Part shown: piece after piece, positions 1 through 6,000 of the stretch
Position numbering within the stretch: the stretch's first letter is position 1
Layout: every line of letters begins with the position of its first letter
NCBI GenBank assembly: GCA_964247135.1
Contig: CAXTTL010000157.1
Coordinates: 1 to 11,377 of the forward strand
Source: an uncultured Deinococcales bacterium
Lineage (GTDB): Bacteria > Deinococcota > Deinococci > Deinococcales > JAAFIG01
Length of the DNA stretch: 11,377 nt
Reading direction: 5' to 3'
Program-made: the position numbers

Positions 1-3000
1 TTCGCGCCGATGGTCTGATTGACCTGCTAATTCCCAACCGTTTTGGCGACGGCGATTCGCGCTCATGGGCAGGGGAGACGCGACGTTTCCCCGAGCCTGA
101 TTCGGGTTGGTGGTTTGTCGCACCCGAACCCATTGGTAAACATCAACTGATCGCCCTGTTCGCGCCTGAAGGCATCAAACTCGACGGGCTGGCAAGGTTC
201 GAGCCTGGAAATCCGTTTGCTGTGGTGCGCGTTCACGGTTTGGCGAACCTCGAGAACGCCTTCAAAACCCGCATTCCAAACTGTGCAACTCGAGTCAATT
301 TTGTGTATTCGGTGGTGAAAAAATAATGTTTGAACTGGTGATCGAAAATGGTTTGGTGGTGCAGCCTGACGGCTCGAGCCTTGCCAATATTGGCATTTCA
401 GATGGTGTCATCCGTGCCATCTCGAGCAATTCACTCGAGGGTCAAGAGGTGATTGACGCGACTGGTTTGGTGGTCATGCCTGGGGCGGTGGATTTGCACG
501 TGCATTTCTCCGAGCCTGGTCGCACGCACTGGGAGGGCTGGTGGCATGGCTCGAGGGCGGCAGCGGCAGGTGGTGTAACAACGGTGGTTGAAATGCCTTT
601 AAACGCCATTCCAGCCACCACCAGCGTATCGGCATTACAACTCAAACTCGAGGCGGCAAAAGACCAAGCGTTTGTCGATTATGCGCTGTGGGGCGGCTTG
701 GTGGACGATAACCTTTCAGATTTGCCAGCACTCGCAAAGTCTGGTGTCATTGGTTTCAAAGCCTTCATGGTGGACATCCAAGACAAAACCTTTACATTCA
801 ACGAACGCGAAATTTTAGAACAGGGAATGCTCGAGATTGGCTCACACGGGCATTTTCTGGCGGTTCATGCCGAAGACAGCCGCATGGTTTGGGAAAATAC
901 TCGAGCCTTGCAAAATCAGGGTCGCATTGACCGCGCCGCCTGGAACGAAGCCCGCTCGCCAGAAGCCGAACTCGAGGCGATCCGCAGCGCATTGCGCCTT
1001 GCCAAAGCCGCCAATTGCCCATTGCACGTGGTTCACACCAGCATCCCCGAAGGCATTGACGAGATCACCAAAGCTCGGGCTTTGGGGCAAGCCGTGACCG
1101 TCGAAACCTGTGCGCATTACCTGGTGTTCACCGACGCCGACCTCGAGCGACTTGGACCGATTGCCAAATGTGCGCCGCCATTGCGCGACGCCGCGCGTCA
1201 AGATGGACTTTGGGAGCGTGTTTTGGATGGCAGCATCGATTGCATTACCAGTGACCATTCGCCCTGCCCAACCGAAGACAAAACCCGAGGAGATAACAAC
1301 ATTTGGTTGGCTTGGGGCGGCATTACGGGCATTCAAAGCCTCGTCGTTGCCGTGCTCAGCGAAGGTCAAAAGCGTGGGCTGAGCCTCGAGCAAGCCGCAA
1401 AATTACTTTCCACCAATCCCGCCAAAATCGCTGGACTCTATCCGCAAAAAGGCGCAATCCAACTGGGCGCAGACGCTGACCTGATGATTGTCAACCTCGA
1501 GAAACCTTGGACGCTCGAGAAAGAAATGTTGTATTCAAAACACCAGCATTCGCCTTACGTTAGATTCGAGATGCAAGCCTTCGTCGAACTGGTGTTGCTG
1601 CGTGGGCAAGTTGTGGCTCGAGGTGGCAGCATTGAAGGTGCGCCACATGGAACTTGGTTGCCCCGTTCAAACGTCAACGCTCGAGCATCCAAAATATTGA
1701 TCTGACAAAGCAAAAAAAATCCCGCCTCGTGGCGGTGATGGTCAAAGGACACACCCGTATTCGGTATTCGTCAAGATTATGCGTTCGAGTGCCAAAAAGG
1801 GAGAGCAGAACAACTGTTTTTCAAAATGGCGGAATCGGCAGGATTTGAACCTGCGAAACATTGAAGTTCTCCTCGTTAGCAGTGAGGTGCAATAAACCAG
1901 ACTATGCGACGATTCCACGATGCTCGAGATATACCCCTCGAGCTTGGGTTTTGGCGAGCCTGGAGGGATTTGAACCCCCAGCAATACGTTTTGGAGACGT
2001 ACTCCCTTAGCCAGTCGGGATTCAGACTCGTAAAGCTCGAGGTTTGCTCGAGCGTGTGGCGGAAAATGAGGGAATCGAACCCCCGAGCCTTTGACAGCCA
2101 GCCGTTTTCAAGACGATTTCCTCGACCTAACCGGACACTTCCCTTAAAAGACCTCGCTCGGAATTGAACCGAGAACCGATGGGTTGCAGCCATCGTTCAT
2201 GCCGTCTGAAACAAGGTCAAGTGGAGTTTGTGTAATTTGATCCACAAACCCTTTTTGCTTTTACAAAATCAGTTTTTAGTCAAGTATTGGGAACTCTAGA
2301 GTAGGGAGTTGTTTTACATTTCGCTTAAGTAGCTCAATAAAACGCTGAGTAACCTCCCAGGCTTGTTTTGCAAATTTATCTTGATGAATACCTAAAATAT
2401 CTTCGTGACCACCATGACGCTGTTCTAGTGCAAGTTCACACATTTCTTTAGTCCAATCCTTAGAGGTGTTCAGCGCCTCATTCATTTTTTCCCAAGATTT
2501 AGGCTTGTCTAAGTTATATTGGTTTTTAAAGTAGTGCCTGATAGCTTCAACTGCTTGAAAAGTAAAGAAAGCTAAATTGTCAGGATATTTTTGTGATAAA
2601 CGCAAACTATCAAGTGCTCGACGCAACTCTGGCGTCTTAAAAGATATTTCAAAAACATCATCAAAAACAAACTTTTTAGTGAATATTTTGAGCTTTTCAT
2701 TTCCCTCAAAAGAAATTTCTTGACTTTGACCATTCCAATGAATTGTTTCAAGCTGAAAATCATAAAATATAGATTCGAGAAAGCACCAAATGTCAAGGAT
2801 TGCACGAATATTATAGCGTGCAAAATTCAAAATTTCGTTTGTTTTTTCAAAATTACCTTCTGCAATTGTAAAAATAACTTTGACATTTTGCCCTGAAAAT
2901 ACTACTTCGACATCACCTGTAAAGCCTATAAATTCTCGAGCCTCATCTCCACATTTTAGTTTTGTGGTCTTGACCAATAAGATTGGTTTGTGATCTGGAT

Positions 3001-6000
3001 AGATTCGACCACGTATTTCAAGTTGATTCATTAAAACCTCTCTTTCATATTTTCTGATACTTCGTAATCATATTTGGACAGAATTACACGTGCTTGAGGT
3101 TTGGTGCTTTCCGAGGGACTCGAACCCTCACAAAACCGTGTTTGAAACGATTACCTCTACCAATTGGGTTAGGAAAGCAAGACCTCGAGAAACCCCGAGG
3201 TTGTGGTGCGCCGAGCGGGAGTCGAACCCGCAAACCCCTGGTTCTAAGCCAGGTGAGACTGCCAATTCCTCTATCAGCGCATGGTACTCGAGACGGGACT
3301 CGAACCCGTAAGCTCTGGCTTCTCGAGCCAGTGAGTGTACCGTTTCTCTACCCGAGCATAAGGTTTGGGTGGGAATCGAACTCACGTTTTCTTGTTTACA
3401 AGATAAGCGCTCTAGCCATCTCGAGCTTCCAAACCATTTGGTGCAATCGGAAGGAATCGAACCTTCGTCTCCTGCATGGCAAGCAGGTGTCGTAAACCAC
3501 TGGACAACGAATGCAATCAATCTCGAGTTTTGAGATTTTTGGTGCGGTAGGAGGGACTTGCACCCTCGTTCTCTGCTTGGAAGGCAGGCATCCTGGCTGC
3601 TGAATGACTTCCGCATTGTGGAGCGCACGGTAGGATTTTCACCCACATTTCCTGCTGGAAGGCAGGCGTCCTAAATGTTGGACGACGAAACGCACGTCGG
3701 GAGCAGAACCAAGGGTTTACCTCAAGCCTGATCCCGTTTTGAAACCTTTTGTGCTCTAAGGTTTCAAGGGGTGGTACTGGTGGGTTTCCTCGGACTCGAA
3801 CCGAGACTTCGCAGCTTAAAAGGCTGCTGCTCTACCTATTGAGCTAAAAACCCGTGTTGGATTGGTGATCTCGAGGGGAATTGAACCCCTATTCTCAGAT
3901 TGAAAGCCTGGAGTCCTAAACCATTGGACGACGAGACCACTTGGCAGGGGAAGACGGACTCGAACCGCCATTGAACAGCTTCAAAGACTGTTGACTTGCC
4001 AATTAGTCCATTCCCCTATGCCTCGAGCAAGTTTGTGCATCACAGTAAATGCTTCTTGCAGGGTTTGAACCCGCTCTCCTTTTGGGATTGACCGATAACT
4101 GTGATGCTTCGGCTCGAGAATTGTATTTCTGGTCGAGAGACTTGGAATCGAACCAAGACCTTCTGTGCTTCAAACAGACGCGCAACACCTTGTACGCTAT
4201 CTCTCGAGGTGGATGCGGAACCGAGAGTCGAACTCGGCATGTCGAGCTTATGAGGCTCGATGTGTCACCAGACACGTTCCGCAATGTGTACCCTCGAGGC
4301 TTTGGAGGCTTTTTTCTCGAGGGTTGTGGTAGGCACGGAGGGATTTGAACCCCCAACGTTCTCTATGTAAAAGAGGCACTCTTCCATTGAGTTACGCGCC
4401 TGTGTGGTGGAAATGACAGGAATCGAACCTGCATTGTTCTTCAGTGCAAATGAAGTGCCATCCCGTTAGGCGACATTCCCAAAGTGGGCGAATTTGTCCT
4501 GCGCCCGCCTTGGCGCTTTGGTAAGGGATGTAAGAATTGAACTTACTTGATGTCCAGTTTCCAAAACTGGCGACTCGCCTTGAGTCCGATCCCTTGATCG
4601 CGCTTCTTGCTCATAAAACAGCACCTTACGGGCTATTCGCGCTTCAGTTACTCGAGTTGAAGCCACTCGGTCACGCGGTATACCTATGTTCTAAAACCCT
4701 TACACAATTCTTGAAATCCTAGTACGCAACAGCCTGGTTTCACCCTCGCAGTTGGGTTTTGGAACACGCTCGAGGTTTGAATTCTCGAGTTAAAGCCCTC
4801 GGCAGGATTTAAACCCGCACCGTTCTTGTTAGAAGCAAGACACTCTGTTCATTTGAGCTACGAGGGCATTTGGAGCACCTGAAGGGACTCGAACCCCCAC
4901 TCTTGACGTTCGAAGCGTCGCGCCTTTCCATTAGGCTACAGGTGCAAAATCTCGAGTGATGCTCGAGGGTCATTTGCGAGGACAAGTTGGCGTGCAAGGG
5001 AAGCCCCTCTCGAGGCGTAAAGATTGGATTTATCTCAGATAACCTTGCACAATCGGTCCTGCGCGGTACTTGATGGCGAATAAGACAGTTTTACATCGTG
5101 TCTTAGGATATTGGCTGACCTTCCAGGGATCGAACCTGGGACATCTCCGTTAACAGTGGAGCGCTCTGACCGCCTGAGCTAAAGGTCAATATGCTCGAGC
5201 AGCGACCATGCCCGCCAGGTGCGTTTTATGGTCAAGACAAGTGATTAACGAACGGAAGCAATCTTTTGTAGAGATAACCGTTTGTCTTCGGCTCAAAGCG
5301 GTGGTGGGTGCGGAAGGATTTGAACCTCCAATGTCGCAAGGACGCCTGATCTACAGTCAGGTGCAATACCGTTCTGCCACACACCCAATCTCGAGGTTCA
5401 AGGTCACACTTGAACCTCAGATTTTTATTTTGGCACTCGAGTTGTCAATGTTCTCAGAACCGTTCCCAGTGTTTGAGAGCGCTCTTTGGGGTCCACCGTC
5501 GGGAATCGCACCCGAGTTTCCAGGGTCACAACCTGGCGTCCTGTCTGTTGGACGACGACGAACAAAATGAAATGAAAAAGGGCTTCTACCGATTCGGTGA
5601 AGCCCAAAATGCAAAATGGGTACACCAAGTTAACTTGTGAAGACCTCGAGACGGAATTCGTTACGACCTTGCCAACTGCGAACGCTTTGATGCTTCGGGC
5701 TACAACGCAATGCACTCCCGCAATAACCCGACAATAGATTCGCGCCGAAATTCGTGGCGGGATTCTCGAGTCTTAAATTTTGGAGTTGCATAAATGTCAT
5801 GGCGACCTTTCAAACCTCGAGTGTCACTCGGGGTCAATCTCGAGGTTGAGTGTACGGTGTACGTAAATTTGTGTCATTCGTACAATTGCTTAGACGCCAC
5901 TAAGCCATTTGGTCAGAAGTTACGGTTTGAGTGTTACGCTCGAGGCATGAAAACAGATGTGACGCTCGAGGAAGCCATATCAATCTTGGCGGGTATTTTG

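Follow-up and report, generated by a model that had tools for sequence, protein, structure and literature searches.

The window, an 11,377-nucleotide stretch of the genome of an uncultured Deinococcales bacterium, carries on its minus strand (1827-5563) a tRNA array of 23 co-oriented genes and one decayed copy (Table 1). ARAGORN predicted 22 of the genes, all on the minus strand, and the Rfam tRNA model (RF00005) added Gly(UCC), which gives the total of 23 reported in the first-pass annotation. As that annotation also stated, 18 of the 22 ARAGORN genes are supported by Rfam, so that with Gly(UCC) 19 genes lie above threshold; Ser-UGA, Cys, Met and Pro fall below it in this genome. The acceptor stem of the decayed copy was judged by eye to be unpaired. 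A further 44 tRNAs are predicted elsewhere in the genome, and in this 84%-complete assembly the only Trp, Ser-GCU and Ser-UGA genes found are those of the array. The complete relative G018 yielded 71 Rfam tRNA matches, 25 of which ARAGORN assigns to its array. A satellite Asp-Glu-Ile cluster lies on contig C14; with the 23 genes and the decayed copy, it forms a set covering all 20 amino acids, and the designation of the array as a supernumerary tRNA set is supported.

Table 1. Features of the tRNA array and its borders, listed 5' to 3' along the array
Feature	Position	Strand	Evidence and remarks
Candidate promoter ATGACA-17-TACACT	5849..5877	-	Consensus scan, 9/12 matches; ~50 nt upstream of small ORF, within 5' end of divergent moeA
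Small leader ORF	5630..5800	-	56 aa + stop; precedes array
Terminator-like hairpin (5605-5580) and T-run (5579-5564)	5564..5605	-	RNAfold; ends one base before tRNA-His
tRNA-His(GUG)	5487..5563	-	ARAGORN, Rfam; encoded G-1, C73
Internal promoter-like site, His-Tyr spacer	5448-5421		Consensus scan
tRNA-Tyr(GUA)	5302..5386	-	ARAGORN, Rfam; retains long variable arm
Dispersed host repeat copy, Tyr-Asn spacer	5201..5237	-	37 nt; 69 blastn hits in genome
tRNA-Asn(GUU)	5112..5188	-	ARAGORN, Rfam; G73
tRNA-Arg(UCG)	4871..4945	-	ARAGORN, Rfam
tRNA-Arg(UCU)	4794..4867	-	ARAGORN, Rfam; no encoded CCA
tRNA-Pro(UGG)	4519..4595	-	ARAGORN; sub-threshold in Rfam here; conserved in 15 arrays or array pieces
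tRNA-Ala(UGC)	4405..4480	-	ARAGORN, Rfam; G3:U70
tRNA-Val(UAC)	4327..4401	-	ARAGORN, Rfam; 79% identity to Nostoc trn operon Val(UAC)
CAU-anticodon tRNA (Met or Ile2)	4210..4283	-	ARAGORN; atypical, 74 nt, U73; sub-threshold in Rfam
tRNA-Phe(GAA)	4130..4206	-	ARAGORN, Rfam
tRNA-Gln(UUG)	3942..4017	-	ARAGORN, Rfam
tRNA-Glu(UUC)	3863..3938	-	ARAGORN, Rfam
tRNA-Lys(UUU)	3778..3853	-	ARAGORN, Rfam
Decayed tRNA-Gly(UCC)-like relic (24th element)	3628..3687	-	RF00005, 28.8 bits against threshold of 29; model positions 6-65 only
tRNA-Gly(UCC)	3543..3614	-	Rfam only, 47.7 bits
tRNA-Gly(GCC)	3439..3514	-	ARAGORN, Rfam
tRNA-Thr(UGU)	3361..3435	-	ARAGORN, Rfam; no encoded CCA
Short-arm tRNA-Leu(GAG)	3282..3357	-	ARAGORN, Rfam; 76 nt
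Short-arm tRNA-Leu(UAG)	3204..3280	-	ARAGORN, Rfam; 77 nt
Short-arm tRNA-Leu(CAA)	3102..3178	-	ARAGORN, Rfam; 77 nt
Foreign ORF	2276..3031	-	251 aa; inserted between Leu and Cys genes
tRNA-Cys(GCA)	2149..2218	-	ARAGORN; U73, no encoded CCA; sub-threshold in Rfam here
tRNA-Ser(UGA)	2057..2143	-	ARAGORN; retains long arm
tRNA-Trp(CCA)	1952..2029	-	ARAGORN, Rfam; G73
tRNA-Ser(GCU), last array gene	1827..1916	-	ARAGORN, Rfam; retains long arm
Intrinsic-terminator-like site	1714..1735	-	5-bp all-G:C stem + eight T; ~90 nt past last tRNA

The 5' border of the array has a recurrent layout. An ORF of ~50-56 aa occupies the same upstream position in 9/9 arrays with a captured 5' end (genera g1, g3, g4 and g5); its length differences within genus g3 preserve the frame, its conservation between genera is weak, and neither relatives in PHROGs nor a second copy in this genome were found. 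RNAfold predicts a hairpin in all nine leaders, with stem sequences that vary between genera and pairing that is kept, and a terminator-like hairpin stands ahead of every array start visible. In the window, the hairpin was missed by the consensus scan because its stem is bulged. The same hairpin layout precedes the first tRNA of G001 and that of a 5-tRNA cluster in the outgroup genome G080. The site upstream of the small ORF is a candidate promoter only, since such sites are no commoner in this region than in shuffles, and the internal promoter-like site could drive the array beyond His. The hairpin may have no gating role and be a plain terminator of the small ORF, and the small ORF itself may be no leader. 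At the opposite border, the terminator-like site may double as a terminator of the convergent amidohydrolase gene, whose end is at 1705.

The foreign ORF does not belong to the ancestral array. It differs from the window in GC content (34.5% vs 52%) and in CTCGAG density (1.3 vs 7.8 per kb), it is absent from the 16 array loci of relatives, and contigs of runs X2 and X4 cross the insertion place without it. Searches of Pfam, PHROGs and PADLOC gave no match, and a protein atlas offers DUF8168 as a lead only.

Array tRNAs are highly divergent from the housekeeping set. Among the 21 that have a counterpart, 20 show 58-75% identity to the best same-amino-acid housekeeping tRNA; the remaining one, Glu, reaches 88% with its best non-array tRNA, which is itself an array-type gene. 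The first-pass figure was 60-70% for 21 of 23. Concatenated array tRNAs of one genus share 90-93% identity. Across genera they share 68-81%, where housekeeping tRNAs share 94-98%, so the array diverges several times faster. The cloverleaves have nevertheless been preserved through compensatory change: of 680 stem cells, 98.1% pair vs 64% in shuffles (0/500 shuffles reach that level), the covariation score is 0.92 vs 0.08-0.20 for slid partners, and 232 double-sided changes were counted in stems. Discriminator bases are constant among array copies for Leu (A73, 46/46), Asn (G73, 15/15), Asp (G73, 11/11), Cys (U73, 11/11), Trp (G73, 12/12) and His (C73, 9/9), and Ala G3:U70, described at first in 8/8 copies, is present in 13/14. 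The CAU tRNA carries C in eight arrays, U in five and A in two, and U73 occurs in 19/25 Ser copies, where E. coli tRNA-Ser has G73; given these discriminators and the odd shape of the CAU tRNA, some array tRNAs may receive no amino acid or a wrong one. The set of anticodons changes from genome to genome (Leu CAA/UAG/GAG/UAA; Arg UCU/UCG/GCG).

The three array tRNA-Leu measure 76-77 nt, with a variable region of 4-5 nt, A73 and an encoded CCA, compared with 82-87 nt for the genome's five housekeeping tRNA-Leu; the lengths, A73 and CCA agree with the first-pass annotation. Its further statement that 30/30 array tRNA-Leu of relatives measure 73-79 nt applies to 45 of the 46 now collected, the exception being Leu-CAG of G001 (87 nt). 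In 34 short tRNA-Leu, A14, A15, G18, G19, U48 and A73 are invariant, and the compensatory change described in 18/20 cloverleaf pairs was recovered with 34 sequences. E. coli LeuRS is reported to require A73, A15-U48, G18G19 and A20a and to dispense with the long arm (PMC9976931); the array retains the Leu identity marks A73, A14, the A15:U48 pair and G18G19. One LeuRS copy above the family cut-off was found in this genome and one match in each relative, save G013 (two split pieces) and G017 (none), and the short-arm tRNA-Leu would be charged by the cell's single LeuRS. The short arm is not a peculiarity of the family. Five mobile or phage tRNA clusters were picked for comparison irrespective of Leu length; in four of them all ten tRNA-Leu found by ARAGORN measure 75-81 nt, and two further tRNA-Leu in the fifth are annotated at 75-76 nt. 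Such tRNAs occur in a Tolypothrix plasmid, in three phages and in the Anabaena trn operon (Nostoc PCC 7120; four, 75-78 nt).

All or part of the array was detected in 15/18 relatives, with a single consensus gene order, and was not seen in G016, G009 and G010 (79, 82 and 87% complete). All five genera are represented, as had been claimed; the earlier count of 17/18 genomes was not reproduced. A tree of concatenated array tRNAs groups by genus, with g1 and g5 recovered at support 1.0, and LeuRS identity (94-96% within genera, 71-78% between) follows the same within- vs between-genus pattern as the array, which we count in favor of an old, vertically inherited locus. CTCGAG density in the array is 8-10 per kb, like that of its flanks, and host dispersed repeats occupy its spacers; the 37-nt repeat matches many contigs of family genomes and is the source of a depth peak. 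Taken together, these observations bear out the earlier view of an old, vertically kept array. Also as reported before, plasmids and phages yielded no whole array resembling this one. The outgroup, in turn, is not empty: in other families of the order, short-arm tRNA-Leu are found as isolated genes or within small clusters. Mobility genes, such as one for a homing endonuclease or an integrase, were not found beside the array, so the case for a phage or plasmid origin is confined to tRNA shape and a weak sequence likeness; identity to the Nostoc array tRNAs (58-79%) is about the same as that to the housekeeping set.

The moeA gene, proposed initially as the neighbor of the array, holds this position in the window's own genus only, not across the family. 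Elsewhere, in three genera, Y-RNA-like genes and rsr (Ro60) follow immediately after the array, with a Ro60 gene (TROVE + vWA_Ro60) directly downstream and co-oriented in G018, G017, G003, G008, G011, G002, G007 and G006. In other families of the order, 1-5 tRNA or tRNA-like genes are found just upstream of rsr in 8/9 genomes with a full rsr. Ro-like genes occur in 357 phage records, and in one of two that were inspected the gene sits inside a tRNA-rich region. We infer that the succession of array, Y-RNA-like genes and rsr is an ancestral partner locus that three genera retain and that has been lost from, or left behind by, the window's genus, where rsr was found in 0/6 genomes and consequently cannot be needed for the role of the array. 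This partner locus fits an RNA-damage role. Additions to the first-pass annotation are the rsr/Y-RNA context, the small ORF and hairpin ahead of the array, and the satellite cluster that makes the set complete.

On balance, we lean towards a chromosomal L-array-type spare tRNA operon, a phage- or plasmid-like set that was domesticated, has been inherited vertically and replaces damaged tRNAs. The principal competing explanation, which overlaps with the spare operon but names the selective agent, is clearly less probable: the altered sequences and shapes, the missing long arm of Leu among them, would protect the set from tRNA-cleaving toxins of competitors, of phage-triggered defense systems or of the cell's own toxin-antitoxin pairs in an arms race. 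Rapid divergence between genera with pairing kept, turnover of anticodon sets and the recurrence of short-arm tRNA-Leu in phage tRNA clusters are consistent with such evasion, and mycobacterial arrays have been termed a putative anti-defense system (PMC12803027). However, Tyr and Ser retain their long arms in every array, so that arm loss is no general strategy; no tRNase, toxin or defense gene was recognized next to the array; relaxed constraint on rarely used genes could explain the fast evolution just as well; and a chromosomal set kept family-wide differs from the phage situation.

The remaining explanations are improbable. The tRNAs could act outside translation, as Rsr/Y-RNA ligands or substrates or as amino-acid donors for non-ribosomal reactions, as the Y-RNA-like tRNA mimics and rsr next to the array in three genera, and the tRNA or tRNA-like genes ahead of rsr in other families, would allow and as the Anabaena authors leave possible in mentioning non-canonical roles (PMC8421152). 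Yet a set for all 20 amino acids, its anticodon loops and aminoacylation marks conserved, meets the needs of translation and exceeds those of a ligand, and the window's genus has the array without rsr. Slightly less credible still is a functionless relic, an ancient prophage or plasmid insertion that decays slowly and is retained by chance. One relic tRNA, four sub-threshold tRNAs, gene gain and loss between genomes, ORFans inserted at several places among arrays and the reported poor transcription of long arrays elsewhere (PMC8421152) would agree with this, but neutral decay would have wrecked the cloverleaves, whereas stems remain paired, identity elements are invariant or nearly so, all 20 amino acids are still covered and the array has survived in 5/5 genera despite the divergence of LeuRS between them. 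Least probable is an ordinary dosage array formed by local duplication of the host's own tRNA genes for tRNA supply or codon usage: in a published survey, Deinococcus-Thermus is among the phyla whose arrays are all small and accretive (PMC8421152), and the small clusters that precede rsr in related families may represent earlier stages, but the identity to housekeeping genes of the same amino acid is only 58-75%, the gene order is not periodic, the tRNA-Leu architecture differs from the host's own, Arg anticodons are UCG or GCG with ACG once among 37 genes, and the longest array in the survey's 25 Deinococcus-Thermus genomes has four genes (PMC8421152, supplementary dataset).

For the spare operon, a precedent is the Anabaena trn operon, in which 23/26 tRNAs are reported to be aminoacylated in vivo, which is induced by translational stress (PMC8421152) and which is described as repressed by TrcR together with rtcB (PMC10272220). 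An ancestor of this Deinococcales family would have acquired or assembled a near-complete second tRNA set and passed it on vertically ever since. Transcription would start upstream of the small leader ORF and pass the terminator-like hairpin 1 nt before tRNA-His, so that the operon, probably gated by read-through, would normally be expressed at a low level and rise when translation is disturbed. Its tRNAs would then replace housekeeping tRNAs that have been damaged, depleted or cleaved. With its phage- or plasmid-like build and its original site beside an RNA quality-control gene, the array looks like a domesticated spare set for damaged translation.

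We have identified a long tRNA array that is chromosomal and family-wide in this lineage of Deinococcales. In the genome of the window (5.09 Mb in 386 contigs, 84% complete), ARAGORN predicted 22 tRNA genes between 1827 and 5563, every one on the minus strand. The Rfam tRNA model scored above its threshold for 19 genes, namely 18 of these 22 and a Gly(UCC) gene missed by ARAGORN, and the same counts had been given by the first-pass annotation. In the direction of transcription the genes are His, Tyr, Asn, Arg(UCG), Arg(UCU), Pro, Ala, Val, Met(CAU), Phe, Gln, Glu and Lys, followed by a tRNA-like relic, Gly(UCC), Gly(GCC), Thr, Leu(GAG), Leu(UAG), Leu(CAA), a foreign ORF, Cys, Ser(UGA), Trp and Ser(GCU). 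The relic has an unpaired acceptor stem and is therefore read as a decayed tRNA copy. All genes are co-oriented with spacers of 1-200 nt, save at the ORF insertion, a layout compatible with a single operon. With 23 genes in 3737 bases, or 6 per kb with the 756-base foreign ORF included, the locus is a tRNA array unit in the sense of Tran et al. 2016 (at least 20 tRNA genes at a density of at least 2 per kb; PMC4758250). Coordinates of the array and of associated features are collected in the table.

Coordinates of the array and associated features. Positions without a prefix lie in the window; C14 and C29 are contigs of its genome, and L-numbers denote loci fetched from relatives.
Feature	Position	Strand	Remarks
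Amidohydrolase gene	326-1705	+	Array flank; Pfam
Terminator-like site	1735-1722	-	Followed by a T-run; after Ser(GCU), the last array gene
tRNA array	1827-5563	-	
Foreign 251-aa ORF	2276-3031	-	Inside the array
tRNA-Gly(UCC)	3543-3614		Rfam
tRNA-like relic	3628-3687	-	28.8 bits, model positions 6-65, at looser Rfam settings
CAU tRNA	4210-4283	-	Met, Ile2 or neither
Dispersed host repeat 2	about 4603-4645		Array spacer; 8 blastn hits in genome
Dispersed host repeat 1	5201-5237		Array spacer; 37 nt, inverted ends; 69 blastn hits in genome
Hairpin	5605-5580		Directly upstream of tRNA-His; T-run ends one base before the tRNA
56-aa leader ORF	5800-5633		Upstream of the hairpin
moeA	5794-7149		Array flank
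Alpha-2-macroglobulin gene			Array flank
Satellite cluster Asp(GUC)-Glu(CUC)-Ile(GAU)	C14:11510-11740		Locus L089
Stand-alone tRNA, anticodon UAU	C29:20913-20988		Ile
Long-arm Leu(CAG) of relative G001	L039:5092-5178		87 nt
ORF in a relative's array	L041:4302-5192		
ORF in a relative's array	L037:6809-7789		
ORF in a relative's array	L038:9434-10243		
tRNA-like RNAs	L036:4610-4855	-	Between array and rsr
tRNA-like RNAs	L041:3210-3477	-	Between array and rsr

The array is supernumerary, as 44 other tRNA predictions lie outside it, and Trp, Ser-GCU and Ser-UGA are represented by array copies only in this incomplete assembly. The complete genome of one relative (G018) has 71 Rfam tRNA matches, and its array holds 25 genes by ARAGORN. 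Compared with the housekeeping tRNA for the same amino acid, array tRNAs show 58-75% identity, against the 60-70% given at first for 21 of 23. Array Glu is an apparent exception at 88%, and its match is a gene within a satellite cluster of Asp, Glu and Ile tRNAs on another contig. This cluster is 79-88% identical to array tRNAs of other genera, compared with 67-75% to housekeeping genes, and Asp and Ile are absent from the arrays of the window's genus and present in those of the other four. The cluster is therefore a detached piece of the array, and with it the second set extends to every one of the 20 amino acids. This genome also has a UAU-anticodon tRNA that stands alone, and high-scoring places that match it occur in three congeneric genomes; an Ile tRNA with this anticodon is rare in bacteria.

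The three tRNA-Leu of the window's array are 76-77 nt long. Across the family, 45 of 46 array tRNA-Leu measure 73-79 nt, and in 45 of 46 the variable region is 4-7 nt rather than the long arm of a class II tRNA. The short length first reported for 30 of 30 copies thus stands with one exception, the Leu(CAG) of relative G001, which combines a long arm with the remaining arms (acceptor, D and anticodon) seen in the short Leu(UAG) lineage and is either a retained ancestral form or one that has regained the arm. All 34 aligned short tRNA-Leu have A14, A15, G18, G19, U48 and A73, and with them the A15:U48 Levitt pair. The essential identity elements of E. coli LeuRS include A14, A15:U48, G18G19 and A73, and the long arm is dispensable (PMC9976931). 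The D loop has the architecture of the genome's own long-arm tRNA-Leu, and one LeuRS gene was found above the family cut-off in the genome of the window, with one match per relative where found. These identity elements, the D-loop architecture and the single LeuRS make a leucine identity of the short-arm tRNA-Leu plausible. Animal mitochondrial tRNA-Leu with short arms are likewise recognised, via A73 and A14 (PMC9976931), although that system is organellar and has its own LeuRS, whereas here one bacterial LeuRS would serve both long-arm and short-arm forms.

A covariance model of the short tRNA-Leu was unspecific, with all tRNAs scoring at about 70 bits, and so only top scores and lengths were used. 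The presence of short-arm tRNA-Leu in the array is confirmed, but they are no peculiarity of the family. Four tRNA-Leu of 75-78 nt occur in the trn operon of Nostoc sp. PCC 7120, and one of 76 nt in a Tolypothrix plasmid array. Among phages, Phosso (Sinorhizobium) has three of 77-79 nt, the T5-like Salmonella phage bobsandoy has two of 77 and 81 nt, and for Daubenski (Streptomyces) the annotation gives two of 75-76 nt. All of these records came up as BLAST hits when other tRNAs or the Ro protein were searched, independently of tRNA-Leu length. An 18-base D-arm string is identical in Leu(GAG) of Phosso and array tRNA-Leu of two relatives (G014 and G003). A tRNA-Leu without the long arm therefore recurs across phage, plasmid and array tRNA sets. 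Our literature search found it nowhere described as a feature of arrays, in bacteria or in phages, and a cyanobacterial survey gives tRNA-Leu of 71-87 nt without comment in the part consulted (PMC6933170).

The folds of the array tRNAs are conserved. Among the 34 short tRNA-Leu, 98.1% of 680 stem cells are paired versus 64% in shuffles, a value that none of 500 shuffles reached; double-sided changes occur at 18 of 20 pairs, which reproduces the compensatory change noted initially, and the covariation score is 0.92 versus 0.08-0.20 with slid partners. Over all arrays, the discriminator base is A73 in Leu (46/46), G73 in Asn (15/15), Asp (11/11) and Trp (12/12), U73 in Cys (11/11) and C73 in His (9/9). 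The G3:U70 pair of Ala is kept in 13 of 14 copies, compared with the eight of eight noted initially. Long arms are retained by array Ser and Tyr tRNAs. Array Ser carries U73 in 19 of 25 copies, and array Arg tRNAs have UCG or GCG anticodons, with ACG once in 37 genes. The CAU tRNA of each array measures 73-74 nt and has a single base between the acceptor and D stems; its discriminator is C in eight arrays, U in five and A in two. A four-gene housekeeping tRNA cluster is 94-98% identical between genera, and the array is several times more diverged than housekeeping tRNAs between genera. Judged by these sequences, the array tRNAs look functional yet evolve fast; rapid divergence with folds kept is what would be expected if selection acted on a second tRNA pool of different shape.

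The family comprises 19 genomes, that of the window among them. The array, or a piece of it, was found in 15 of 18 relatives and in all five genera (g1 to g5), with array contigs from 14 relatives and an array tail in one more (G006). Family-wide presence is upheld, at a lower count than the 17 of 18 originally given. The three remaining genomes (G016, G009 and G010; 79, 82 and 87% complete) have 38-42 tRNA matches each and no high-scoring short tRNA-Leu. Gene order across the family begins His-Tyr-Asn-Asp-Arg(2-3)-(Lys)-Pro-Ala-Val-Ile-Met-Phe and continues Gln-Glu-Lys-(Thr)-Gly-Gly-Leu(3-4)-Cys-Ser-Trp-Ser; individual arrays have gained or lost genes locally. An unrooted tree of 15 concatenated array tRNAs recovered g1 and g5 with support of 1.0, and the concatenated tRNAs share 90-93% identity inside a genus and 68-81% across genera. 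LeuRS grades likewise, at 94-96% and 71-78%, respectively.

The array also carries marks of its host. CTCGAG is the commonest hexamer of the window's genome (33,925 copies, 6.7 per kb) and occurs 89 times in the window versus 2.7 expected. It has a density of 8-10 per kb in the array, similar to the flanks, and of 6-8 per kb in the relatives' loci. Hyper-abundance of CTCGAG is family-wide, and its sparseness flags foreign inserts; the palindrome is, we presume, reminiscent of the cyanobacterial HIP1 repeat. Two dispersed repeats in the array spacers match many contigs from genomes of the family. Searches of 72,556 plasmid and 50,697 phage records found no similar array, with at most 4% of the array covered by any record, which bears out the corresponding earlier statement for plasmids. 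The distribution, the genus-following tree, the host marks and the lack of a plasmid or phage match indicate an old, vertically kept second set, and this reading of the first-pass annotation is upheld, with the shared gene order in its favor as well. Long arrays (L-arrays) have been described as sporadic and horizontally transferred, and the authors argue against vertical inheritance (PMC8421152, in the part consulted); the array of this family, present in every genus and with a tree that follows the genera, does not share that trait. Nor is it a small accretive array (A-array), which is short, often periodic and made of the host's own tRNA genes, as the family's arrays have 23-29 genes, are non-periodic and show the low housekeeping identity reported here.

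The 251-aa ORF inside the window's array has a GC content of 34.5% and about one CTCGAG per kb, and is missing from the relatives' arrays. Contigs of two public runs, which represent related strains, run from 2219 to 3291 without it; this comparison covered contigs of the four best runs, all of one study. Low GC, few CTCGAG and absence from relatives and run contigs mark the ORF as a recent insertion. It has no match in Pfam, PHROGs or PADLOC, and an assignment to DUF8168 suggested by a protein atlas was unsupported by Pfam's own model. Arrays of relatives are broken by ORFs at differing places, none with a Pfam or PHROGs match. Two interrupting ORFs are AT-rich and CTCGAG-poor and hence recent, and the ORFs of loci L037 and L038 are 60% identical to each other with host-like composition and hence older. 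Pfam detected no homing endonuclease, a frequent but non-obligatory neighbor of L-arrays, among the ORFs of the window or those inserted in relatives' arrays.

A short ORF, a hairpin and a T-run precede the first tRNA in all nine arrays with a captured 5' end, from four genera. The hairpin stems vary in sequence with pairing kept, and length differences of the leader ORF are frame-preserving within g3. A hairpin and T-run also stand before the first tRNA in G001 and in a 5-tRNA cluster of G080, an outgroup genome from another family of the order. The leader peptide has no Pfam or PHROGs match and no detectable relative in outgroup loci, the Nostoc array or the rest of the window's genome. Rfam detected no T-box or riboswitch in the leader and, at the array and six relatives' loci, tRNA only and no Y RNA family. 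A classical attenuator with alternative antiterminator pairing was not established by eye and RNAfold. In the window there is no space for a promoter between hairpin and tRNA-His, so that His at least would have to be transcribed through the hairpin. We infer from this arrangement that the array is probably under regulated read-through of the hairpin, to which a conserved leader ORF and a terminator right before the first tRNA both point. Alternatively, a promoter-like site between His and Tyr may serve as the start for the remainder of the array.

Only within the window's genus is the array flanked by moeA and the macroglobulin gene, and the location beside moeA noted previously for relatives is accurate there and not in other genera. 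In g3, g4 and g5, a gene for an orthologue of Ro60 (rsr, with TROVE and vWA_Ro60 domains) lies directly downstream of the array on the same strand; rsr was detected in 5/8, 1/2 and 2/2 of their genomes, respectively, and adjoins the array wherever both are on one contig (eight genomes). It was not found in the window, the rest of its genome, any of six genomes of the window's genus, or the single g2 genome. Between array and rsr lie tRNA-like RNAs with a normal 7-bp acceptor stem, an ACCA end and D and T arms, one with G3:U70, and with an insert of 60-190 nt where the anticodon arm would be. Some carry GCCGAAG..TTATCGA, which fits GNCGAAG, a motif of bacterial Y RNAs described for Ro binding (PMC4201824), and none matches an Rfam Y-RNA family. 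These loci of three genera are likened to the rsr/Y RNA loci that Chen et al. 2014 (PMC4201824) treat in Deinococcus radiodurans and further bacteria, a likeness that the window itself, lacking the rsr/Y-RNA part, does not share.

Among 102 outgroup genomes sampled from the order's other four families, nine have a full rsr and one has a fragment. In eight of the nine (loci L073-L082), a group of 1-5 tRNA or tRNA-like genes in the same orientation lies no more than 1.5 kb upstream of rsr; these groups include short-arm tRNA-Leu that share 79-85% identity with Leu(GAG) of the family's arrays. The earlier finding of no convincing array in 12 outgroup genomes is thus qualified by these small upstream groups. 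There is an ancestral link between array and rsr. Ro-like genes also occur in 357 phage records, with proteins 33-43% identical to the family's Rsr; Daubenski has its Ro-like gene within a tRNA region, and a mycobacteriophage carries two tRNAs some 3 kb from such a gene. Our literature search found no paper joining Ro60/Rsr with tRNA arrays among the 15 listed of 50 matches. The natural substrates of the Ro60 system are still unclear, and its laboratory model is in Deinococcus; through their ancestral placement next to Y-RNA-like genes and Ro60, tRNA arrays are linked to bacterial RNA quality control.

A close known counterpart is the trn operon on plasmid delta of Nostoc sp. PCC 7120, likewise a single operon in which 23-26 supernumerary tRNA genes (24 by ARAGORN) share one orientation and serve most amino acids. 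Its short tRNA-Leu share the 3-bp D stem and 11-nt D loop of ours, and its Val(UAC) is 79% identical to the window's. However, the Nostoc operon is plasmid-borne, adjoins HNH endonuclease genes and is horizontally spread, whereas the window's array is chromosomal, has no endonuclease and is maintained through a whole family, and the gene orders are unlike. In Nostoc the TrcR repressor acts at the promoter (PMC10272220), while the first tRNA of the window's array follows a leader ORF and a hairpin. Induction and charging have been demonstrated for the Nostoc operon, with 23 of 26 operon tRNAs of Anabaena aminoacylated in vivo (Santamaria-Gomez et al. 2021, PMC8421152). Silence under standard conditions, with induction upon translational stress, is a trait ascribed to L-arrays. 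A common origin of whole arrays across phyla was not supported: the window's array tRNAs are 58-79% identical to the Nostoc array, which does not exceed their identity to housekeeping genes. The array units of Tran et al., like the window's, add redundant copies and few new anticodons; they were reported from Firmicutes, Cyanobacteria, Actinobacteria and Gammaproteobacteria, and the main text has no occurrence of Deinococcus (PMC4758250). A survey of 25 Deinococcus-Thermus genomes reported arrays of at most four genes (PMC8421152); the present array is the first of its size in its phylum. Daubenski, Phosso and bobsandoy likewise have many same-orientation tRNA genes with short-arm tRNA-Leu of 75-81 nt, but their tRNAs are interspersed with many small ORFs, whereas those of the window follow one another almost without interruption and have no phage genes for structure or replication nearby. 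The phage-like tRNA shapes suggest that the array may be of mobile origin.

By analogy with Anabaena and from the rsr context, the array most likely functions as a stress-gated spare tRNA pool. The main rival is that an arms race with tRNA-cutting nucleases drives it. A wider proposal, to which we assign a low probability, is that array, Y-RNA-like mimics and Rsr began as one phage-type module for survival of RNA damage. The leader ORF would sense failing translation, upon which RNA polymerase would read through the terminator into the full spare set; altered tRNA shapes, such as short-arm tRNA-Leu, would evade the agent that disabled the housekeeping set; and Rsr and Y RNA would clear damaged RNAs. 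This family would have enlarged the module to all 20 amino acids, with other families of the order, and apparently Deinococcus-like genomes too, retaining the stub of 1-5 tRNAs upstream of rsr. If this were true, short-arm tRNA-Leu would mark a widespread mobile tRNA lineage of phages, plasmids and these chromosomes. To our knowledge, long tRNA arrays have been described as mostly silent passengers, and only that of Anabaena has a demonstrated role. The array of this family stands apart, being found in a phylum whose 25 surveyed genomes held no more than four genes per array, kept by descent through the family, and fast-evolving with its folds intact.
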